A stretch of 64,000 nt of DNA from an uncultured Methylomirabilota bacterium (GTDB lineage: Bacteria > Methylomirabilota > Methylomirabilia > Methylomirabilales > 2-02-FULL-66-22), in NCBI GenBank assembly GCA_963705305.1, contig OY970067.1, forward strand, positions 209,714 to 273,713, read 5' to 3'. Position 1 is the first letter of the stretch. Every line of letters starts with the position of its first letter. Positions 2,183 through 22,383 of the stretch are shown one piece after another. Both the position numbers and the translations under genes were made by a program. The notes beneath the pieces were generated by a model, which was not told the DNA's origin, ran no database searches, and saw only the letters and a program-made list of their open reading frames with translations.

Positions 2183-2971
2183 TCACCCGGCTAGCTCATA
2201 GCCATATTCCTTGATCCAGCCGAGGGAGCTCAGGGTGTCGGGGGCAGGTTCGTACTCCAATCCAACAAACTCCCTGTAGCCGAGCTTGTCCATCTCGCTG
2301 AAGAGGAACGGGTAGTTGATCTCGCCGGTCCCCGGCTGATGCCGCCCGGGGGTGTCCGCAACGTGAATGTGATCGATTTGTGCGATGTGCTCACGCAGGA
2401 TCTGGGCGAGATTCCCCTCTGTTCGTTGCGCGTGGTAGAGGTCATACTGAACGTAGAGATTTGGCCGTTTTGCTTCGGCGATCACATCGAGCACATCCTG
2501 CACGCGGTTGAGGAAGAAGCTCGGGATGGTGTAGCGATTCACATGCTCGATGACCACCTTGGCCCCGATTTCGCCCAGGGCATCCGCCGCGAACCGAAGG
2601 TTCTCAATCATAGTCGCACAATGCTGCTCCGGGCTAAATCCTGGCGTCATCTTGCCTGCCATGCAGTTTACGCGAGGAACGCCGAGGATCTTTGCGTAGG
2701 AAATCGCGATCTTGACGCCCGCACGGAACTCCCCCACCCGGTCCGGAATGGCAGCGATGCCACGGTCTTTTGGCCAGTTGCCGCTGGGCAGGATGAAAAG
2801 AACAGCCCGAAGACCGTTCGCCTCTAACAATCCCTTGAGCTCTTCCGCCGGATATTCATAGGGGAGGAGGAACTCAACCTGCTTGAAGCCGGCCTGCCTG
2901 GCGGCAGCGAACCGGTCCGTGAACGGGACCTCCGTAAACAGCCACCCGAGATTAGCCGCAAACTTTGGCAT
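2183..2971 (-). CDS. hydroxypyruvate isomerase family protein (xylose-isomerase-like TIM barrel; OtnI/Hyi-like)
   Basis: N-terminus MPKFAANLGWLFTEVPF..RF.AA..AGF..VEF is the Hyi signature. GGGAGGAAA RBS. Confidence 0.85.
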   Translation of the reverse strand: MPKFAANLGWLFTEVPFTDRFAAARQAGFKQVEFLLPYEYPAEELKGLLEANGLRAVLFILPSGNWPKDRGIAAIPDRVGEFRAGVKIAISYAKILGVPRVNCMAGKMTPGFSPEQHCATMIENLRFAADALGEIGAKVVIEHVNRYTIPSFFLNRVQDVLDVIAEAKRPNLYVQYDLYHAQRTEGNLAQILREHIAQIDHIHVADTPGRHQPGTGEINYPFLFSEMDKLGYREFVGLEYEPAPDTLSSLGWIKEYGYELAG

Positions 2972-3127
2972 GGAGCGCTTTCCTCCCTACCAGGGTGGGT
3001 GCCATGGCCTCAATTGATGGCCCCAGCCGCCTAGTGCGAGGCAGAAAGGAGCCATAGGGTCGGGAACCAGATCGCGTTCTCGTAGGTCACAGCGAGCACA
3101 GTTGTTGCTTTCTTCAGTGAAGGCACA

Positions 3128-4144
3128 TCACACATGCTGGCCTCGGCGATCAGCGAGAATGGTGCCCATCCGGCACGCCACCCTGAGCGCCTCGTAAAGG
3201 CCCTGTGAGCTCGCTTTCCCTTGTCCGACGATGTCGAAGGCGGTTCCGTGGGCCGGCGTGGTGATCGGAATTGGTAACCCTCCCTCGACTGTCACTCCTC
3301 GCTCGAAGCCCATCAGCTTCATTGCAATCTGGCTCTGGTCGTGATACATGGCCACAATGGCATCATAGGTCCCTGCCTTAGCCCGAAGAAAGATGGTGTC
3401 TGCCGGGAACGGGCCGGCCGCCTGGATTCCTTCCGAACATGCTTCCTGGATACCTGGGGCGATCGCCCGGATTTCTTCGTCGCCGAATAGCCCACCTTCC
3501 CCACCGTGTGGGTTAAAGGCTGCCACCGCCACTCGTGGCTTCGCGACGCCCGATAGGCGTAGCGCGTCGTGGATTAGCACGATGGCGTCATGCACTGCTA
3601 TCGGGGTGATGAGATCACTCACTTGCTTGAGGCCCACATGCGAGGTCACGCGGGAAGTCCAGAGGTTTTCCAGTACATTGATCTCCGAGATGTACCCTTT
3701 CCATTGCAGCCGATCAGCGATGTAATGCAACTCATCCGGGAAGGGGGAGCCGCCAAGGTGCATGGCCTGTTTATTCAGCGGGGCGAAGACGATGGCGTCC
3801 AGCTTCCCGCCCCGTGCCAAGTCGAGGGTGAATGCCAGCACATCTAGGACCGACTTACCCGCCTTAGGGCTGACCTGTCCAATCGTGAACTCGTCAGGAG
3901 ATGGGCCCGAAAAGTCCAGGAATTGAAGCGATCCGCTGTCGAAGCGTACGTCCTCCGAGCGACGCACGATTTGCACACTGAGGGAGATGCCAGCCGCCCT
4001 CTGGCCCATTGCAAAGCTACGACGATCCCCGATCACCACTAGGGCCGCATGCTCCTGAACGTCGGTGGTCGCAAGGAGCTTGGCTACGATTTCCGGACCG
4101 ATCCCAGTTGGATCCCCCAGCAATAACGCAATCCTTGGCTTCAT
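3128..4144 (-). CDS. PdxA-family 4-hydroxythreonine-4-phosphate dehydrogenase-like NAD-dependent dehydrogenase
   Basis: IALLLGDPTGIGPEI N-terminus, NPHGGEGG motif, TPAHGTAFDI. GAGGAGAAA RBS. Confidence 0.85.
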   Translation of the reverse strand: MKPRIALLLGDPTGIGPEIVAKLLATTDVQEHAALVVIGDRRSFAMGQRAAGISLSVQIVRRSEDVRFDSGSLQFLDFSGPSPDEFTIGQVSPKAGKSVLDVLAFTLDLARGGKLDAIVFAPLNKQAMHLGGSPFPDELHYIADRLQWKGYISEINVLENLWTSRVTSHVGLKQVSDLITPIAVHDAIVLIHDALRLSGVAKPRVAVAAFNPHGGEGGLFGDEEIRAIAPGIQEACSEGIQAAGPFPADTIFLRAKAGTYDAIVAMYHDQSQIAMKLMGFERGVTVEGGLPIPITTPAHGTAFDIVGQGKASSQGLYEALRVACRMGTILADRRGQHV

Positions 4145-4631
4145 TCTCCGTTTCTCCTCTGCGACAGGGTACCGCCAGCCCGTAGCGGTCCCCCTCGCCC
4201 TGACGTTTCACCTAGATTTCCTGGTTCCATGCCGTGAGGCCGTTCGGTGAGCAGGTGAGTGGCGCTTAGTATTCCGTCGCACTGGATGAGGATCACCGCA
4301 CTGCGACACGTTTCGGCATACCGGCGAACTTCCTATGTTTCTCGATTGGAGGACGTCCTCGTGATTTCCATGCACCCTTTCGGCGTTCGGTTCGTTTCGG
4401 CGCAGGATTCAGTTTGAGAAGCCCCTCGTAGGTTGTTCCGGAATCTTTAAGCCGACCTTCTGTGCCATTGCTCCCCAATACCCAAAACGCCCCGTGGGCT
4501 GACCGGGTGCAGCTGTGGCCGTCGGTCAGGAGCGTGAGAGGCCATCCTCCCCCCATGCCGTGGGATCGTCAGGATGAACCCGTCATCGCCCGTGACCCGC
4601 TCGACCTTCATCATTGATGTAAATGCTGGCA

Positions 4632-6017
4632 TCACTGCTTGCCGAAGGCCGCCTCCTGTTCGCGGCGGAGCTCCCACAGGTAGGAATCTTGGGGAATCTC
4701 CACCATCGCCTCGGTAAGGGGCGTTCCGGCCGCAACATCCTTCATCAGCCGTAACCCCGCGCACAATGTCAAGGGGACTAATTTTTCCCGGCGCGCCTCG
4801 GCCCAAGACTCGTAGCTCGAGGTTAGCTGGTCGGTCAGCTCGAGGTTCCGATCGATGGCTGTCCCCTGCTTGAGATCACGCTTCGCCACCGCGATGAGGT
4901 CCCATCGCGGGCGGCTCTCGCGTGCTCCTGTCGGAACCCCGAGCCTCGCCGCCGTGAGGATGGAAATGGGGGTTTCCACCCCGCAGAGATGATACGGCCG
5001 GTAAATCACGGCCGCGGTCCCGGCGCGGTTCGGAACCAAACCCTTCGTGTGCAGGATCGTACGCGAGTAGGTGTTCTCGCAGCGGACCACCACGAACACG
5101 CCTCCCCCCATGGTCGGGATCTCCGGTGTTATGAGCGAGCAGACCGTATCCAGCATTCCAGGGCGCTCCAGGGTTCCCCCGTCGGTTTTCAGACATAATG
5201 ACTCCGGAATCTCAAGGGTCCGGAGGATGGGCTCGGCATGCGGTCCGGTGATCGGGTCTAGCCCAGTGGCATTGGCCACGCAAATCATCTCCATCCGGTC
5301 ATAGTTAGCCCCCGTCTCTCCGAAACACTTGCGGCGGGCCGCGATTTTCGCCGCGGCATCATCCCGGATCGGCCGGGCTGCCTCGACCCAGGTCGGCTGG
5401 ATGGGTAGGCTCCTTCCCCCAATCCGAACCTCTCCGGCTCGCTCGTCCAGGACGATCTCCTTGTCATGACTCTTGCCCGCTGCGATGATCTCGAGCCCGA
5501 GTACCCTCGCCCAATCGCACAGGCCGATGATGGCCGCGGGCTGATCACCATCGGCTTGCGTGTACACCACGCCGGCCCTCTCCGCCTTCCGGTGGAGAAT
5601 CGGCCCAACGGCGGCATCCGTCTCCTTGTTGACCATGACTACATGGCAGCCCTGCGCGAATGCCGCGACGGCGTGGATAGCTCCCGCCTCCGCCTGGCCG
5701 GTCGCCTCGACCACCACCTCGACATCGCAGGCGGCCATCAGTTCCGGGCGAGCCGTGAGAACCACCTTGCCGCTGCGTCGGGCGTCGCGCACCTCTGATT
5801 CTTTCTCTGCGACAGCAAGACGTCCCTCGTCCCACCCAGCAAGGCGGCACGCCTTCTTTGCGGATTCGACGTTCGTATCGGCAATGCACGTGACAGCATA
5901 CTGCGGGATTACCGGGGACTGTGTGATGACGGCTGTTCCAAAATGGCCGGCTCCGATGATCCCAACTTTCACTGGTGGCTTCTGAGGACCCTTCGACAGC
6001 AGATTTCCGTAGATCAT
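4632..6017 (-). CDS. NAD(P)-binding oxidoreductase with C-terminal SAF domain (COG4091, homoserine-dehydrogenase-like)
   Basis: Rossmann motif VKVGIIGAGHFG near the N-terminus and a 461-aa uninterrupted ORF. GGAGGG RBS. Confidence 0.7.
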   Translation of the reverse strand: MIYGNLLSKGPQKPPVKVGIIGAGHFGTAVITQSPVIPQYAVTCIADTNVESAKKACRLAGWDEGRLAVAEKESEVRDARRSGKVVLTARPELMAACDVEVVVEATGQAEAGAIHAVAAFAQGCHVVMVNKETDAAVGPILHRKAERAGVVYTQADGDQPAAIIGLCDWARVLGLEIIAAGKSHDKEIVLDERAGEVRIGGRSLPIQPTWVEAARPIRDDAAAKIAARRKCFGETGANYDRMEMICVANATGLDPITGPHAEPILRTLEIPESLCLKTDGGTLERPGMLDTVCSLITPEIPTMGGGVFVVVRCENTYSRTILHTKGLVPNRAGTAAVIYRPYHLCGVETPISILTAARLGVPTGARESRPRWDLIAVAKRDLKQGTAIDRNLELTDQLTSSYESWAEARREKLVPLTLCAGLRLMKDVAAGTPLTEAMVEIPQDSYLWELRREQEAAFGKQ

Positions 6018-6082
6018 CGTAACCCTCCGCGCTAGCGTTCGACTTTACCTTCTACTAGCCACTCCATTCAATTTATCAGTTA

Positions 6083-7256
6083 CTAGTCTACCGTGTCACA
6101 CAGATGCCATCTTATGCAGCACTGCTCGAGCCCGCTCGACTTTCGCCAGGATGTCCTCCACCTTGGCCGTCCAGGTGAACGACCGGGGGTGGCGGTTGTG
6201 GTGTGCGATGAAGGCCTCAATGGCGGCGATGAGGTCGGCGACGCTCTTGAAGACGCCCCGGCGGAGCCGCTTGGTCGTGAGCTCCCGGAACCACCGCTCG
6301 ATGAGATTCAACCACGAGCTGCTGGTCGGAATGAAGTGCATGTGGAAGCGTGGGTGGCGGGCGAGCCAGCGCTGGACCGCAGGGTGTTTATGGGTGGCGT
6401 AGTTGTCCACGATCAGGTGGAGGTCCAGGTCGGGCGGGGTCTGCGCGTCGATCAGCCGGAGGAACCGGAGCCACTCCTGGTGCCGATGCTTGGGCAGGCA
6501 CGTGCCGATGAGCTGGCCCGTCACGAGCCCCAGGGCGGCGAAGAGCGTGGTCGTGCCGTTCCGCTTGTAGTCGTGGGTCAGGGTGCCGCACCGGCCCTTC
6601 TTCAGCGGGAGGCCGGGTTGGGTGCGGTCGAGCGCTTGGATCTGGCTCTTCTCGTCGGCGCACAGCACCAACGCGTGCTCAGGGGGATTCAGGTACAGCC
6701 CCACCACATCGGTCAGCTTCTCGAGGAACCGCCGGTCGCGGCTCACCTTGAACGGGCGGACCCGATGCGGCTTCAGGCCGTGGGCCTGCCAGACCCGGTG
6801 CACGGTCTTCGGGCTCACGCCGACCGCGGCCGCCAGGGTCCGCGTGCTCCAGTGGGTGGCGGCGGGCGGCGCGCTGGTTGTCGTCAGGGTGACGATGCGC
6901 TGCAGGACCGCCGGGGCGATGGCGGGCGTCCGGCCGGGGCGCGGGGCATCCCGCTCGATCCCGGCCAGCCGCTGCTGGGCGAAGCGAGTCCGCCACCGAC
7001 CCACACACTCGCGATCCGTGTCCAGGGCCCGGGCGACCTCGTCGTTCCGCTGCCCCGCCGCCGCGCGCAGGACGATCTGCGCCCGGCGCACGAGGCGCGC
7101 GGGGGTGCGCCGCCCCCGTGCCCAGCGTTCCAAGATGGTGCGTTCCTGCGGGCTCAGCACAATCGGCACCGCCACACGCATGGCTTGCTCCTCCTCACCG
7201 AGGAGCATACCAGAGTACGTACTATAAGTCACCGTATTTATGACACACTAGACTAG
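6083..7256 (-). mobile_element. IS630-family insertion sequence, copy A, inserted in a CTAG site
   Basis: Terminal inverted repeats GTCTACCGTGTCA (6086-) and TGACACACTAGAC (-7253). The element is flanked by C-TA (6083-6085) and TA-G (7254-7256), i.e. a TA duplication inside CTAG. It has a single transposase ORF. Confidence 0.85.
6096..7181 (-). CDS. IS630-family DDE transposase
   Basis: HTH N-terminus plus [17 protein letters not shown]...[14 protein letters not shown]...[13 protein letters not shown]. Start ATG 7181 with GAGGAGGAG upstream. The ORF-track start at 7232 is probably too long. Confidence 0.9.
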
Positions 7257-7853: not shown

Positions 7854-8936
7854 CTAGTGTTGTGTAACTAACGCTGCTTTACAACGATCGACCTTCGTCA
7901 TGATCATGTCAGCGCTCTTGGTCCAGACGAAGCGTTTGGGAGCGCGGTTGTACTCATCGAGGTACTCCTGGATCGCGGCCAGGAGCTCCTTGACGCTGGC
8001 GAAGCTGCCGCGACGGATGCGCTTCTGGGTGATCTCGCGGAACCAGCGCTCGACCAGGTTGAGCCAGGAGCTGCCCGTGGGCGTGAAGTGGAGATGGAAG
8101 CGCGGGTGGCGGTGGAGCCAGCGCTGGACCGGGGGGCTCTTGTGGGTGCCGTAGTTGTCCACGATGAGATGCAGGTCCAGGGCCGCCGGCGTCTGCTGAT
8201 CGAGGGTACGGAGGAAGCGGAGGAACTCCTGGCTGCGGTGCCGGGGCAGACACTGGCCGATGACCTTGCCATCGAGCAGGCAGAGGGCCGCGTAGAGGGT
8301 GGTGGTCCCGTGGCGCTTGTAGTCGTGGGTCATCGTGCCGCAGCGGCCCCGCTTCATCGGCAGCCCCGGTTGGGTCCGGTCGAGGGCCTGGATTTGGCTC
8401 TTCTCGTCCACCGACAGGACCAGGGCCCGGTCCGGCGGATCGAGGTACAGCCCCACCACGTCGCGCAGCTTCTCGACAAAGTGGGGATCGCGGGAGAGCT
8501 TGAAAGTCTCCACCCGGTGCGGCTGCAGCCCATGCTGCTTCCAGATCCGCTGGACCGTCATGTGGGAGAGGCCCTGGGCCTTGGCCAGGGTGCGGGTGCT
8601 CCAGTGCGTCGCCCCCCGCGGGGTACTGTGCAAGGTCGCCTCGACCACCCGCTTCACGACCGCAGGCGAGAGAGCCTTCTTGCGGCCTGGCCGCGGCGCC
8701 TCCTTCAGCAGCCCGGGCGCCCCGCGGGCCTGAAACCGGCTCCGCCACAGCAGCACCGTCGGGCGACTGGTGCCCAGCCGCGCCGCGCTGGCGTTGTTGG
8801 GGACGCCCTCGCTGGCCAGCAGGACGATCCGGGCCCGCAGGGCCACCTTCTGCGGTGTCTTGCCCGAGTTCGCCAGGAACCGGAGTCGCTTCCGCTGATT
8901 CTCGTCGATCGTGAGCGCCCGCGCTGGAGTAAACAT
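7854..8936 (-). CDS. IS630-family DDE transposase
   Basis: 360 aa, collinear with the 6096..7181 product. Shared blocks include [36 protein letters not shown] and SSWLNL.ERWFRE. Confidence 0.9.
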   Translation of the reverse strand: MFTPARALTIDENQRKRLRFLANSGKTPQKVALRARIVLLASEGVPNNASAARLGTSRPTVLLWRSRFQARGAPGLLKEAPRPGRKKALSPAVVKRVVEATLHSTPRGATHWSTRTLAKAQGLSHMTVQRIWKQHGLQPHRVETFKLSRDPHFVEKLRDVVGLYLDPPDRALVLSVDEKSQIQALDRTQPGLPMKRGRCGTMTHDYKRHGTTTLYAALCLLDGKVIGQCLPRHRSQEFLRFLRTLDQQTPAALDLHLIVDNYGTHKSPPVQRWLHRHPRFHLHFTPTGSSWLNLVERWFREITQKRIRRGSFASVKELLAAIQEYLDEYNRAPKRFVWTKSADMIMTKVDRCKAALVTQH

Positions 8937-12707: not shown

Positions 12708-13092
12708 AAGGGCCCTGGCAATTCGCGCAAATTGCGGCAGCGCTAACCGCGCGACACCTGCCGTTTCCATCCTCCGATGACACCGGCCTTCAATAACACA
12801 ACAGCCCCTGGGGATCCGTGATCCACCGGGGGCCGTAGGGTTCGCACGCCAGGAGCTTTCCGGCCGGCATCGTTGCCTCCTTCAGGCCGCCTTGCTGGGC
12901 ACCGAATTCATTCGGGCCAGACGCTACCGCTCATCGGAGGGGGAAGTCAAGGTGCAAATGTGGAAAGACGGAGGTCAGAGGTCCCTGATCAGCCGTCAGT
13001 GGTCAGAGATCAGCCGTGAGCGGTTAGCCATCAGCCGAGGAATGACCACGGACCGCTGACTATCGTCAAGGTGCTGGGGGACGTCCCCTTTT
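12708..13092 (-). repeat. A-type miniature element, copy A1 (degenerate left terminus, conserved A core, low-complexity tail, ACGTCCCC right terminus)
   Basis: The core at 12795-12960 aligns with 17690-17870 and 23330-23480. The right end GGGGGACGTCCCCTTTTCA (13076-13094) matches the E-type right termini. Confidence 0.65.
12804..12833 (-). terminator. terminator-like hairpin inside A1 (minus strand)
   Basis: GC-rich hairpin GCCCC..GGATC-CGT-GATCC..GGGGC, followed on the minus strand by the U-rich GUUGUGUUAUUG. Confidence 0.35.
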
Positions 13093-16063: not shown

Positions 16064-16312
16064 TACGGCGCGTTGGATTAATTGTCATATCTTGCCGCCG
16101 CCCGCCTCGCCAGGCTTCGGTACGCGGAATGCGGCGGCCTGCGAGGCATCCGTACCGTGATTGTGCCAGGGCTGGAGTGCTGGATCATCTTCCGAGACGA
16201 TCGGGGCCGCGCGGAATTCGGTTTCTGGCGGCTTGGCAAGGCCTTGCTTCGCTGTTGCTGAGGACACTGTCGCTGAGGATACTTGACAAATAAAGAGAAC
16301 GTCTCTCATCAC
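16064..16312 (-). repeat. E-type miniature element, copy E5 (most diverged)
   Basis: Termini GTTGGATTAATTGTCATATCTTG / GAGAACGTCTCTCATC. The core aligns with E1-E4, e.g. GTGATTGTGCCAGGGCTGGAG and GGCCGCGCGGAATTCGG. Confidence 0.6.
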
Positions 16313-16707
16313 ATCCGCGGCAGGGGCTTCACATCGGCGTCGGCACCCGCCGACCGCTCAACCGGATACCCGCATCGCACCCATGCCTCCATGCCGCCTT
16401 CGAGGTTGTAGACCCGCTCGCCGCCGAGCAAGGCGAGAACCTCGGCGCCGAGGGCGCTGATTGCTCCAATGCGGCAGACCACCACGATGTCGCGCTCGAG
16501 GGCGAGCTCGGCGTGGTGCTTGAAGAGCTCGTCTACCGGAAGGTTCCGGGCCCCGGCGATATGCCCCTGGGCGTACTCCCCCGGCAGGCGCACATCCACC
16601 ACCTGGGCCCCGCCCGTCTCGATGAGGGGTCGGGCGTCCGAAACCTCGATCCGGCTGAAGGGCTCCTCGGGGTCAGCCTCCCCCCCTCCCAGGGGACCGG
16701 TCCTCAT
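16309..16707 (-). CDS. rhodanese-like domain protein (sulfurtransferase)
   Basis: VVDVRLPGEYAQGHIAGARNLP and active-site loop VVVCRIGAIS. The start was chosen at ATG 16707; upstream ORF extension is high-GC read-through. Confidence 0.8.
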   Translation of the reverse strand: MRTGPLGGGEADPEEPFSRIEVSDARPLIETGGAQVVDVRLPGEYAQGHIAGARNLPVDELFKHHAELALERDIVVVCRIGAISALGAEVLALLGGERVYNLEGGMEAWVRCGYPVERSAGADADVKPLPRM

Positions 16708-16807: not shown

Positions 16808-17467
16808 TCAGCCCTTCCGCGCTGAGGCATCCAGCATCGCCTGGAGCAGCGTTTCCGGCGGCTGCGCTCCGGACACCGCGGCGCGGCGATTGAAGATGAA
16901 GCAGGGCACCGCGTTGATGCCGGCCTGCCGGGCTTCGAGGTCGACTCGCAACACGTCCTCCCGGCCGTCCTCGGACGCCAGGTAGGAGGCCAAAGCGGCG
17001 CGATCCAGGCCGGCACGCTCGCCGACGCTCGCCAGCGCCGCCTGGTCGGTGAGGTCGGCGCCATCCAGGAAATAGGCGCGGAAGAGCCGCTCCGCGACCG
17101 CGTCTTCATGCCCCTGCGTCGCACCGTAGAGCATGAGCCGGTGCGCGTTCAGCGTGTTCGGCTGCACCGTGATGCGGTCGAAGGCGAAGTCGATACCGAC
17201 TTCCCGGCCCACGCCCGCCACGCGCGCGTAGCTGTGGGCGTGGCCGGGGCCGAACTTGCGCTCGAGGTAGTCCTGGCGCGGCATGCCCGCGTCCGGCAGG
17301 TCCGGGTTGAGCTGGAACGGCAGCCAGCGCACGGCCGGCTTTCCCCCATCGGGCACGCGCTCCTGGTATAGCCGCAGTGCGGCTTCCAGGCGCCGCTTGC
17401 CGATGAAGCACCAGGGTCAGACGATGTCCGAGACGATTTCGATGGTAAGCGTGGGTTGAGCTTGCAT
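16808..17467 (-). CDS. DsbA/FrnE-like thiol-disulfide oxidoreductase with in-frame TGA at the CxxC Cys position (candidate selenoprotein, or a pseudogene)
   Basis: ATG 17467 (GAAAGGA RBS) gives MQAQPTLTIEIVSDIV-TGA(17419-17417)-PWCFIGKRRLE.... Both halves are in the same frame. The family consensus at this position is SD.VCPWC.IGK. Confidence 0.6.
17362..17415 (-). promoter_or_regulatory. candidate bacterial SECIS element
   Basis: It starts 1 nt after the UGA. Closing helix CCUGGU/ACCAGG encloses hairpin GCGGC-GCCUGGAA-GCCGC (17396-17379), whose loop carries GG about 30 nt after the UGA. Confidence 0.4.
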
Positions 17468-17607
17468 GCGCCGGTCCTTTCTGCTGGGAGTGGCCCCGAT
17501 GTGTCCTGGCGCGGCGTGCGGGGTGCCGGACGGGGCCATTATACCGTCGGAAGGGGCCTTTGTGGATCTCTTCATGGCCGCGAGCGTTCTTGCTCGTAAT
17601 GGACGCA

Positions 17608-17940
17608 ATGGGGGACGTTGCCAATTTCGTCAACTCGCGACGGCAACGGTCACGCCCACTCACCGCGCCTCTATCTTTCAGGGACACCGGCCTCTACGAA
17701 CCCAACAGCCCCCTGGGATCCCGTGATCCGCCGGGGGCTGTTGGGTTCGCACGCCAGGAGCTTTCCGGTCGGCATCTTCGCCTCCCTCAGGCCACCTAGC
17801 TGAGAGCGAATTGATTGCGACATGACGCTACCGCCTGTCGGAGGGCGAAGTCAAGATGGAAATGCGGGGGCCAGAAATCGGCTTTCAGAAATACGGGACG
17901 CCGCATTCCCTCCCAGACTTTGCCAACGTCCGCCTCGCGA
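17608..17940 (-). repeat. A-type miniature element, copy A2 (TIR-bounded, about 330 bp)
   Basis: Left end AATGGGGGACGTTGCCAATTTCGTC versus the reverse complement of the right end GAGGCGGACGTTGGCAAAGTCTGG. The core is shared with A1 and A3. Confidence 0.7.
17699..17747 (-). terminator. long hairpin / terminator-like structure inside A2
   Basis: AACCCAACAGCCCCC..GGATC-CCGT-GATCC..GGGGGCTGTTGGGTT forms a stem of about 20 bp. The minus-strand 3' flank is only weakly U-rich. Confidence 0.35.
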
Positions 17941-18182
17941 GGTTCCCGCAAGCAGAACTCGATGGCCTGCGAGCCCTCCACAAAGTGATGGTGCCAGGCC
18001 TGGAGTTTCGGATCATTTTCTGGGAGGACACGGACCGTGCAGATTTCGTTCTCCGCCGGCAAGCCGGGACCCCGCGCTGGTACCGATGGAAAGATTCGAC
18101 GGAGAATGCTACGTCTCCTCTTTCGGCGATACGCGGGGAGGTCGTTAGCAATTAGGACAATTAGGCCACAACGTCCCTTTTA
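17941..18182 (-). repeat. E-type element core, copy E1 (left terminus replaced by A2)
   Basis: Nearly identical to 20430-20667 over about 230 nt. The right end is GGCCACAACGTCCCTTTT. Confidence 0.75.
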
Positions 18183-18190
18183 CGCGGTTC

Positions 18191-18357
18191 ACAATTCCGG
18201 CGTACGAGAACGCGTGAGGACCCGCCCCGGGCCGGGAGGCGCGGCTGACTCTGCATGGGGTGGCCCCGGACCCCACGCCCGCAGGCTCCTCTGCCGCCGG
18301 GGCGCCCGGAGTGCCGGGAGGCTGCCTCCCTCCGAGAAGTTGTTTCAGAACCTACGT
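18191..18357 (+). repeat. F repeat copy 1 (relic of an MFS gene 3' end plus downstream hairpin)
   Basis: ACAATTCCGGCGTACGAGAACGCGTGAGG...GGGAGGCTGCCTCCC...CAGAACCTACG matches 19673-19767, with a roughly 70-nt internal insertion. Confidence 0.7.
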
Positions 18358-18360
18358 CCC

Positions 18361-18431: not shown

Positions 18432-19709
18432 ATGCGCCGCCCGCCGATCCGACCTCGCCTGCGGCCGCCACCGGCGGGATCCCCGGGACCGGCCGGCATG
18501 CGTGAAGCGCCCGCCTTCCCGGGGCCGGCCCGATCCCGGGCGGTCGTGGTGACCGCCCTGGGGACGGCCCAGACCTTGGCCTGGGCGTCAAGCTACTACC
18601 TGCCGGCGATCCTCGCCCATCCGATTGCCGCGGGGCTGGGCGTCCCGCACGCGTGGGTCTTCGCGGCCTTCTCGGCCGCCCTGCTCATCGCCGCCCTTGC
18701 CGGCCCCGTCGTGGGGCGAGGGATCGATCGCCACGGGGGGCGGGGCGTGCTCGTCCTCTCGAACCTGGTGTTCGCCGGCGGACTGCTCGCGCTCGCCGCG
18801 GCCACGGGCCCCCTCAGTCTCTTCGGGGCCTGGGCGGTGCTCGGCGTCGGGATGGCGCTGGGGCTGTACGACGCCGCGTTTGCCACGCTGACAAACCTCT
18901 ACGGCCGCGCGGCCCGCGGCCCAATTACCGGCATCACCCTCTTCGCCGGTTTCGCGTCGACGGTGAGCTGGCCGGTGTCCTCGCTCCTGATTGATATGCT
19001 GGGGTGGCGCGAGACCTGCCTCGTCTGGGCCGCCCTCAACCTGGGAATCTGCCTTCCGCTCAATCGCTTCCTCGTGCCGCTCGCCACGGAGCAGGCGCCT
19101 CCGCGCCGCGTGCCGGGAGCCCGGGTGGGGTGGAAGCCGCGCAGGGAGATGTTCCTGCTCGCCTTCGTGTTCGGGGCCGCCTGGTTCGTCACCGGCTCGA
19201 TGGCGGCCCACCTGCCGCGCCTCCTCGAACGGGCGGGGGCGACGCCCCTCCGGGCGGTCGCCATTGCCGCGCTGGTCGGGCCGGCCCAGGTCGCCGCGCG
19301 GCTGGCCGAGTTCTTCCTTTTGAAACGGACACACCCGGTGGTCTCGGCGAGGATCGCGACGACGCTCCACCCCATCGGCGCGGTCGCCCTGGCCTGTTGT
19401 CCGGGCCCCCTGGGGACAGTGAGCTTTACTGTCCTGTACGGGGCCGGGAATGGCCTGCTAACGATCGCTCGGGGCACGGTCCCGCTCGCCATCTTCGGTC
19501 CTCACGGCTATGGCGAGCGCACCGGCCTCCTCGGCGCCCCCGCCCGCGCCGCCCAGGCGTGCGCCCCGCTGGTGTTCGGGCTCTTGTTTGACGCCATGGG
19601 GCTTGCAGTCATCCTGGTCTCGGCGGGATTGAGCCTGGCCGCGCTGGGCGCCCTGCTGTGTCTGCGCGCAACCCCGGATCGGACAATTCCGGCGTACGAG
19701 AATGCGTGA
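18432..19709 (+). CDS. MFS transporter
   Basis: 425-aa ORF with about 12 hydrophobic segments. GAGGGA RBS; an alternative start is M23 at 18498. Confidence 0.8.
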   Translation: MRRPPIRPRLRPPPAGSPGPAGMREAPAFPGPARSRAVVVTALGTAQTLAWASSYYLPAILAHPIAAGLGVPHAWVFAAFSAALLIAALAGPVVGRGIDRHGGRGVLVLSNLVFAGGLLALAAATGPLSLFGAWAVLGVGMALGLYDAAFATLTNLYGRAARGPITGITLFAGFASTVSWPVSSLLIDMLGWRETCLVWAALNLGICLPLNRFLVPLATEQAPPRRVPGARVGWKPRREMFLLAFVFGAAWFVTGSMAAHLPRLLERAGATPLRAVAIAALVGPAQVAARLAEFFLLKRTHPVVSARIATTLHPIGAVALACCPGPLGTVSFTVLYGAGNGLLTIARGTVPLAIFGPHGYGERTGLLGAPARAAQACAPLVFGLLFDAMGLAVILVSAGLSLAALGALLCLRATPDRTIPAYENA

Positions 19710-19767
19710 GGGCCCGCCCCGGGCCGGGAGGCTGCCTCCCCTCGAGAAGCTGCTTCAGAACCTACGG
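19673..19767 (+). repeat. F repeat copy 2 (overlaps the last codons and stop of the MFS gene)
   Basis: Direct repeat of 18191-18357. It encodes ...TIPAYENA-TGA and then the GGGAGG-CTG-CCTCCC hairpin. Confidence 0.7.
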
Positions 19768-19890
19768 CCTTATTCGATGGCTCAAGACTTCCCGCAACCG
19801 CAGAGCGACCGGAGTCGGCCTGGCGAATTCCCCGGCCGCATCTGCTATACTCCCGGCAAATCTGCGGCCCATTCCTACTGGAGGGCGCCC

Positions 19891-20385: not shown

Positions 20386-20667
20386 GGGCCGCTGCATTAT
20401 CTGTCCTGCCGGCGCCCGTCCCGCCAGCCCGCGCCAGGCGCAACTCGACGGCCTGCGAGCTCTCCACAACGTGATGGTGCCAGGCCTGGAGTTTCGGACC
20501 ATTTTCTGGGAGGACACGGACCGTGCAGATTTCGTTCTCCGCCGGCAAGCCGGGACCCCGCGCTGGTGCCGATGGAAAGATTCGACGGAGAATGCTACGT
20601 CTCCCCTTTCGGCGACACGCGGGGAGGTCGTCAGTGATTAGGACAATTAGGCCACAACGTCCCCTTT
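20381..20667 (-). repeat. E-type miniature element, copy E2 (complete)
   Basis: Termini AATAGGGGCCGCTGCATTATCTGTC / GGCCACAACGTCCCCTTT. The core is almost identical to E1. Confidence 0.75.
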
Positions 20668-21067: not shown

Positions 21068-21297
21068 CTGAGGGAGGCCGCACTATTTGTAATATGCCGC
21101 CGCCGCCCGCCTACCAGGCTCTTCTAGACAGGACTTGATGGCACGTAATGCCTCCACTCCGTGATGGCGTCAGGACTGGATCCGCGGATCGTTTGCCAAA
21201 GGGCACAGGCCGCGCGGATTTCGTTCCCTAGCGACCTGCCGGGATCCCACTTCGGTGCTGTTGGAAAGATTCCACAGATAATGCTATTTCCCCCATT
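21068..21297 (-). repeat. E-type miniature element, copy E4
   Basis: Termini GAGGGAGGCCGCACTATTTGT / AATGCTATTTCCCCCATT. The core aligns with E1-E3 with substitutions and 1-nt indels. Confidence 0.65.
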
Positions 21298-22163: not shown

Positions 22164-22383
22164 ATGGTGAGAGACGTCGCATTACTTGTCATATTTTGTC
22201 GGATCCACCAAGCGGATGGATGGCCAGCTAGCCCTCTACGGCGTGATGGTGCCAGGACTGGAGTTTCGGATCATTTCCTGGGAGAACACGGGCCGCGCGG
22301 ACTTCATTTCCTGGCGGCTTGCCGGGACCACGCCCTGGTGTCGATGGAAAGATTCGACAAACAATGCAACTTCCCCTGTCATT
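22164..22383 (-). repeat. E-type miniature element, copy E3
   Basis: TIRs GAGAGACGTCGCATTACTTGTC / GACAAACAATGCAACTTCCCCTG (15 of 21 positions match). The conserved core includes GTGATGGTGCCAGGACTGGAGTTTCGGATCATTTCCTGGGAG. Confidence 0.7.

Follow-up and report, generated by a model that had tools for sequence, protein, structure and literature searches.

A Candidate DsbA/FrnE-like Selenoprotein Gene in an Uncultured Methylomirabilota Bacterium and the Conserved RNA Domain Downstream of Its In-Frame UGA

Introduction

DsbA-like proteins of the FrnE group (COG2761) that carry selenocysteine (Sec) in a UxxC motif were first predicted in 2005 by Zhang, Fomenko and Gladyshev, from nine sequences of the Sargasso Sea metagenome (PMC1088965). 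They were later recognized in several deltaproteobacterial and clostridial genomes (PMC1794560), and a 2026 review lists them as "DsbA-like protein form 1, PF01323, UxxC" (PMC13188914). Here, we describe a gene of this kind in a 64,000-nt stretch of DNA (the window) from an uncultured Methylomirabilota bacterium (GenBank assembly GCA_963705305.1, contig OY970067.1, positions 209,714 to 273,713). An initial annotation of the window had called the gene a candidate selenoprotein with a structure resembling a selenocysteine insertion sequence (SECIS) behind an in-frame TGA. This proposal is upheld by 50 related TGA loci in one clade and by an RNA domain specific to the Sec-type genes. Judged from sequence comparison, the TGA very probably does encode selenocysteine.

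The gene shares with DsbA-like form 1 the PF01323 domain, a UxxC motif with Sec in place of the N-terminal Cys, widespread Cys homologues and a stable stem-loop directly past the UGA. The hosts differ. The known members are marine, deltaproteobacterial or clostridial, whereas the clade described here occurs in soil and groundwater metagenome-assembled genomes (MAGs) of Methylomirabilota/NC10 and of Burkholderiales type. The RNA also differs, with a basal helix and a variable interior here and a small G-containing apical loop in the Sargasso examples. To judge from the COG and Pfam assignments and the motif, the gene probably belongs to the same subfamily as the published form 1 sequences (AACY01178397, NIP15863.1). 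With the family's domain, UGA position, Sec/Cys pair and downstream stem-loop, it is a predicted member of a known family. The novelty is mild and lies in how large the clade is and in the hosts that carry it, together with a clear picture of its non-consensus SECIS, for which the Cys-type genes serve as controls.

Deinococcus radiodurans FrnE (PDB 5cp1, 5cnw) is a cytoplasmic DsbA-like disulfide oxidoreductase. Residues 7-213 of the window protein align with its residues 12-217 (E = 5e-34), and TGA-PWC is matched with CPWC. The two proteins share the active-site context SDI.CPWC.IGKRR and the lack of a signal peptide, but Sec stands in place of the first Cys in the window protein. FrnE is a chain of 260 residues, whereas the window protein has 219 amino acids, lacks the C-terminal tail of about 40 residues and ends six residues past the aligned domain. 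In D. radiodurans FrnE, this tail bears a second Cys pair. The window protein has no such pair, its only Cys residues being C20 and C189.

Reading Frame and Product

ATG 17467-17465 on the minus strand starts a DSBA-domain gene of 219 codons (220 including the stop). The frame reads MQAQPTLTIEIVSDIV, then TGA 17419-17417, then PWCFIGKRRLEAALRLYQ..., and continues as one frame to the TGA stop at 16810-16808; the gene contains no further frame disruption. The list of open reading frames (ORFs) divides it at the TGA into 17417..17608 and 16808..17356. The initial annotation had read the two parts as one frame from ATG 17467 to 16808, and this was confirmed when the sequence was read again. When Cys is put for the TGA, the Pfam DSBA domain (PF01323) covers residues 8-211 (E = 5.7e-36; score 124.5 bits, cut-off 25.6). 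The annotation had also placed the TGA at the nucleophilic Cys codon of the DsbA/FrnE CxxC motif, which agrees with the alignment to CPWC of FrnE, to 27 Cys-bearing loci and to three full-length database homologues, where V-[TGA]-PWC is matched with V-C-PWC. From these comparisons, the product is, with high confidence, predicted to be a cytoplasmic FrnE/DsbA-like thiol-disulfide oxidoreductase whose nucleophilic residue is the Sec of U-P-W-C. With its active site already at residue 17, the protein has no signal peptide.

Sec-Type and Cys-Type Genes among the Relatives

Whether homologues carry TGC or TGA at this codon was a check named in the initial annotation. In a DNA scan with one genome per species, 77 of the 80 loci obtained contain the motif region. 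TGA stands at exactly codon 17 in 50 of the 77; these loci come from different species and are 53-89% identical to the window protein, a recurrence well above what chance would give. The remaining 27 are more distant (48-62% identity) and have TGC or TGT at the same codon. Cys is the sole alternative residue at this site among the homologues. The flanking amino acids are conserved on both sides of the TGA across the loci, as in a Sec/Cys pair. Residues -5, -4, -3 and -1 from the TGA are invariant (V, S, D and V), and each is written with two to four synonymous codons. Therefore, translation runs through the N-terminal segment in this frame, and purifying selection acts on the segment.

A neighbor-joining tree groups all Sec-type sequences in one clade, apart from the Cys-type sequences. 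The TGA loci are not copies of one contaminant sequence, because they differ from each other at many positions. The closest relatives of the gene are found in NC10/Methylomirabilota MAGs (84-89% identity), and on this basis the source would probably be placed in that phylum.

The Sec-type clade (loci L001-L072) mixes MAGs labelled NC10/Methylomirabilota, Burkholderiales/Betaproteobacteria and Hyphomicrobiales. The mixture suggests that the selenoprotein gene and its SECIS have moved together by horizontal transfer. The labels Streptomycetaceae, Bordetella and Enterobacteriaceae on some of the MAGs look like unreliable names from automated binning. In 15 Cys-type loci (L042, L048 and L051 among them; about 2946-6590), the DsbA-like frame continues from stop to stop for approximately 3.6 kb. 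Fusion to a large protein encoded downstream could explain this, as could a frame that just happens to stay open in GC-rich DNA.

A Conserved RNA Domain Downstream of the UGA

Positions in the mRNA are counted from the U of the UGA as position 1, so that the window coordinate is 17420 minus the position. Alignments of 81 nt per sequence were made for 51 TGA-bearing (Sec) genes and 27 Cys-bearing genes (A2 and A3, respectively). For the 51 Sec sequences, RNAalifold gives a consensus that consists of one helix, 15-20/68-73, and nothing else. Its pairs are present in 48-51 of the 51 sequences at every position, with U-G wobbles in three. The whole six-pair helix is able to form in 48 of the 51 Sec genes but in only 7 of the 27 Cys genes, and its mean pair probability is 0.84-0.97 in the former against 0.09-0.20 in the latter. 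In locus L058, a double compensatory change from C18-G70 to U-A keeps the helix. An extension of 3 bp (12-14/74-76) is found in about half of the Sec sequences, seven of which have C12-G76 replaced by U-A. In the Sec genes, neither the UGA nor the few nucleotides after it are paired. For positions 12-76, the folding-energy z-score averages -3.36 in Sec genes and -0.62 in Cys genes (Mann-Whitney p = 7e-12).

Since the arms of the helix encode conserved residues (F-I-G and P-D), synonymous sites were examined. The codon at positions 70-72 has U as its third base in every Sec gene. At this site, all 46 Asp codons are GAT, compared with 36% of 607 other Asp codons in the same genes, and Pro at the helix site is CCC in 43 of 46 against a background of 37%; the Sec sequences are related to one another, and p-values from such codon counts overstate their independence. 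The Cys-type genes encode similar residues here, but with GAC, GAG, GGC and other codons.

The interior of the domain differs by clade. In 27 of the 51 sequences, including the window and its NC10 relatives, the main loop lies at position 42 or 43 and the domain is one long irregular hairpin. In the window mRNA, the middle and apical pairs have probabilities of 0.97-1.0. Relatives keep the apical stem by two-sided changes, such as G37-C49 to U-A with Ala-to-Ser and Leu-to-Met replacements, and the compensatory changes in the middle and apical helix are limited to clades. A subgroup of 14 sequences of Burkholderiales type instead has a Y-shaped domain with two hairpins. The second hairpin, of 7 bp (48-54/58-64), is paired in 14 of 14, four of its pairs showing compensatory changes. 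The peptides that it encodes differ despite the pairing (KLLAEQH versus KQFAELY). Remodelling of the interior beneath a constant closing helix is good evidence that selection acts on the RNA fold itself.

We infer that the domain at positions 12-76 is a bacterial SECIS. A bolder possibility is that it represents a distinct class of bacterial SECIS, with a basal helix of 6-9 bp beginning 11 nt past the UGA as its conserved determinant, in place of the consensus model's small apical loop with G, and an interior of about 47 nt that is remodelled between clades. This is conceivable, though we regard it as rather unlikely.

Comparison with the Bacterial SECIS Consensus

The bacterial SECIS (bSECIS) consensus has a loop of 3-9 nt on an upper stem of 4-16 bp, a G in the loop, 16-37 nt between UGA and loop, and a minimum free energy (MFE) of -7.5 kcal/mol or lower (PMC13188914). 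The domain shares with the E. coli fdhF-type and consensus elements its place within the coding sequence immediately after the UGA, with about 11 nt unpaired and then a stable structure. In the window, the apical loop and stem (a 6-bp AGCCGC/GCGGCU stem with the triloop ACU) and the MFE (-39.8 kcal/mol for positions 1-78) are within the consensus. In other respects, the domain departs from it. The favored loop starts at position 42 in most members, and the loops found there across the family are GCU, ACU, CCU, CUU and others, with G often missing from the first two positions; the 14-member subgroup is Y-shaped.

Several observations weigh against Sec decoding through this domain. The favored loop of the window, ACU, has no G. 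Its distance from the UGA, 38 nt, is one nucleotide beyond the range given for "most" elements. Some hairpin that agrees with the consensus on all four counts occurs in only 5 of the 51 Sec genes and 3 of the 27 Cys genes, and a consensus-type loop appears in only 3 of the 51 MFE structures. Rfam returned no match at gathering thresholds over the whole window, and a permissive scan of 17300-17480 gave chance-level hits only. No selA, selB, selD or tRNA-Sec gene lies inside the 64-kb window: ARAGORN predicted no tRNA in it, tblastn with E. coli SelA, SelB and SelD gave nothing in the window or in any retrieved locus, and Pfam scans of 30 likely window genes found no selenium-related gene. Finally, the DsbA-like selenoprotein families are themselves bioinformatic predictions (PMC13188914).

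Against these points, a subset of predicted bacterial SECIS elements is reported to fail the bSECIS model (PMC13188914). The phylum also offers precedents: 63 selenoprotein genes are reported as predicted in one Methylomirabilota MAG (PMC13188914), and Sec-type hydrogenases have been described from the phylum (PMC13582414), which makes Sec decoding in this genome plausible.

The structure put forward in the initial annotation was a different one. It combined an outer helix, CCUGGU/ACCAGG (17415-17410 with 17367-17362), with an inner hairpin at 17396-17379 and was said to match the geometry of a bacterial SECIS. The complementarity exists. The inner hairpin, with loop GCCUGGAA, has 5 bp and -9.3 kcal/mol, lies 25 nt from the UGA and has G first in its loop; taken alone, it is the only simple hairpin in the gene that agrees with the bSECIS consensus on all four counts. 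As a functional fold, however, the combination (5-10/53-58 and 24-28/37-41) is neither favored nor conserved. Its ensemble probability in the window mRNA is approximately zero, because CCAGG pairs with a nearer CCUGG and GCCGC pairs with a downstream GCGGC. Across the family, several pairs of the two helices are present in only 8-29 of the 51 sequences, with no excess covariation; the conserved, Sec-specific helix is CAUCGG/CCGAUG instead. The outer helix would start one nucleotide past the UGA and so fall within the footprint of a ribosome that has the UGA in its A site.

Alternative Explanations

The alternative that survives best is decoding of the UGA without selenium, either by a reassigned code (UGA as Trp or Gly) or by near-cognate read-through (Trp/Cys) that needs no SECIS. 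It would suit the lack of Sec machinery among the window genes and the poor fit of the downstream structure to the bSECIS consensus. However, TGA is the commonest stop in the window and terminates 21 of 36 likely genes, this one among them, so the code is standard and reassignment is excluded. Only Cys replaces the residue at the site, which is the signature of Sec/Cys exchange. The conserved structure begins 11 nt downstream, as SelB-dependent recoding requires; this spacing rule is known from E. coli fdhF. We consider selenium-free decoding improbable.

A second alternative takes the short product as real. The public call of this gene (P0001) starts at GTG 17356, which sits in the structured domain, and gives a protein of 182 amino acids without CxxC. 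The 16 upstream codons would then be a leader peptide or a regulatory upstream ORF, and the RNA structure would regulate the start. Gene callers do pick this GTG or similar starts. A homologue search over 5.8 billion proteins returned thousands, of which the best 120 (P0001-P0120; 73-99% identity) were examined. N-terminally truncated calls of 169-205 amino acids that start just past the motif make up 117 of the 120, namely this gene and 116 of the 119 others. The starts vary, however: the calls open at whichever Met or Val comes next (MYQER..., MRWLPF..., VRWLPF...), which means that no internal start is conserved. The segment between the TGA and these starts, PWCFIGKRRLE..., is strongly conserved as protein and in frame with the upstream part. 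According to the FrnE alignment, the short product would lack the first strand and the CxxC helix of the DSBA fold and hence any redox function. A genuine short product is even less probable than selenium-free decoding.

The calls are better explained by Sec decoding: they are truncated because the Sec TGA was taken as a stop. Only three of the best 120 homologues are full-length (64-67% identity), and all three are Cys forms with VSD[IV]VCPWCFIGKR. NCBIfam has no selenoprotein model for this clade; the top match there, to a different thioredoxin-like selenoprotein family, scores 26.6 bits, where the cut-off is 190. The mis-annotation is systematic because such a model is missing.

The weakest alternative, raised in the initial annotation, is a plain TGC-to-TGA nonsense mutation in a pseudogene or recently inactivated gene; one base change would suffice and the public annotation does read the TGA as a stop, but the same TGA in 50 loci of different species down to 53% identity, the conserved flanks, the intact frame without further decay, the synonymous-only variation upstream and the Sec-specific RNA structure 3' of the codon leave it next to no probability, and the comparative data effectively refute it.

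Predicted Decoding and Catalysis

Under Sec decoding, the UGA would be recoded because the mRNA directly 3' of it folds (positions 12-76) into a domain closed by CAUCGG/CCGAUG. When the ribosome arrives at UGA-17, the mRNA channel would hold the first 11 nt downstream as a single strand. The domain that starts from position 12-15 would then stand at the channel entrance and present its hairpin to SelB-GTP-Sec-tRNASec, and Sec would be inserted. In the finished protein, the selenolate of U-P-W-C would act as the attacking nucleophile, and thiol-disulfide exchange that is faster or of lower potential than in the Cys homologues may be expected. The steps that involve SelB, selenium and catalysis are modelled on bacterial Sec decoding and on thioredoxin-fold selenoproteins. 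SelB would presumably bind the domain and selenium be incorporated, which would imply selA, selB, selC and selD in this genome.

Locus Features and Neighboring Genes

The features of the locus are collected in Table 1. The promoter-like match lies about 70 nt 5' of ATG 17467 and is weak.

Table 1. Features of the candidate selenoprotein locus, in window coordinates
Feature	Position	Strand	Description and basis
Full-length selenoprotein gene (predicted)	16808..17467	(-)	219 residues, U at position 17, DsbA/FrnE-like; PF01323 and FrnE 5cp1 matches
Sec codon UGA (predicted), codon 17	17417..17419	(-)	Site of the N-terminal Cys of CPWC; FrnE alignment and TGA in 50 related loci
UxxC redox motif, U-P-W-C	17408..17419	(-)	Frame reading and locus comparison
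SECIS-like RNA domain	17344..17408	(-)	mRNA positions 12-76; in this genome one long irregular hairpin, MFE -39.8 kcal/mol
Basal helix, 5' arm CAUCGG	17400..17405	(-)	Positions 15-20, beginning 11 nt past the UGA; alignment pairing and pair probability
Basal helix, 3' arm CCGAUG	17347..17352	(-)	Positions 68-73; holds the constrained Pro CCC and Asp GAU codons
Middle helix CCUGG 17390-17386/CCAGG 17366-17362, enclosing AGCCGC-ACU-GCGGCU 17384-17370 (loop 17378-17376)	17362..17390	(-)	Pair probabilities and compensatory changes
First-proposed hairpin GCGGC-GCCUGGAA-GCCGC	17379..17396	(-)	Alternative local fold; fits bSECIS alone, out-competed and unconserved
Truncated ORF, public call P0001	16808..17356	(-)	182 amino acids from GTG 17356; start inside the SECIS domain; active site lost
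Shine-Dalgarno-like AGGA	17475..17478	(-)	7 nt 5' of ATG 17467-17465; read directly
Sigma-70-like promoter match TCCACA-17-TATAAT	17538..17566	(-)	10/12 positions; weak consensus match only
Rhodanese gene	16309..16707	(-)	PF00581, E = 1.3e-19; Cys active site CRIGAIS; 100 nt past the selenoprotein stop

The initial annotation had placed a rhodanese gene in the same operon. Such a gene does follow downstream here, but rhodanese stands beside the DsbA-like gene only in this organism (the window and Logan contig L081); not one of the other 77 loci has it there. The adjacency is specific to this genome and therefore carries no functional weight. ORF clustering found no neighbor common to all Sec loci.

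The G+C content of the window is 66%. Periodicity scans of G+C at the third and second codon positions (GC3/GC2) for other genes with in-frame TGA were too noisy or too insensitive. They missed even this gene, since its TGA comes after no more than 16 codons.

Dispersed non-coding repeats of about 160-260 nt with 70-95% identity are located at 17941-18181, 20407-20667, 22201-22377 and 21129-21286, with a partial copy at 12876-12963. The copies are intergenic and lie around the DsbA-like gene and a neighboring major facilitator superfamily (MFS) transporter gene. The family may be an element resembling miniature inverted-repeat transposable elements (MITEs) or repetitive extragenic palindromes (REPs). 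Shorter repeats of 50-60 nt pair 18191-18240 with 19683-19732 and 18300-18359 with 19710-19769. Farther away, two paralogous DDE_3 transposase genes with helix-turn-helix (HTH) domains, 6096-7232(-) and 7854-8936(-), lie about 600 bp apart. The pair suggests insertion-sequence activity in the region.

Conclusions

The finding changes no concept of Sec biology. Its immediate consequence is for annotation, since the deposited proteins of this gene and of more than 100 close homologues lack the redox active site. If the RNA domain did prove to be a distinct SECIS class, SelB would recognize it in a different mode in Methylomirabilota and certain Burkholderiales, and the gene and its SECIS would possibly have been transferred horizontally between those phyla. 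The 51-sequence SECIS alignment with its Cys-type controls could help refine models of bacterial SECIS elements. For the DsbA-like selenoprotein family, the finding adds a well-supported and widespread clade from soil and groundwater.

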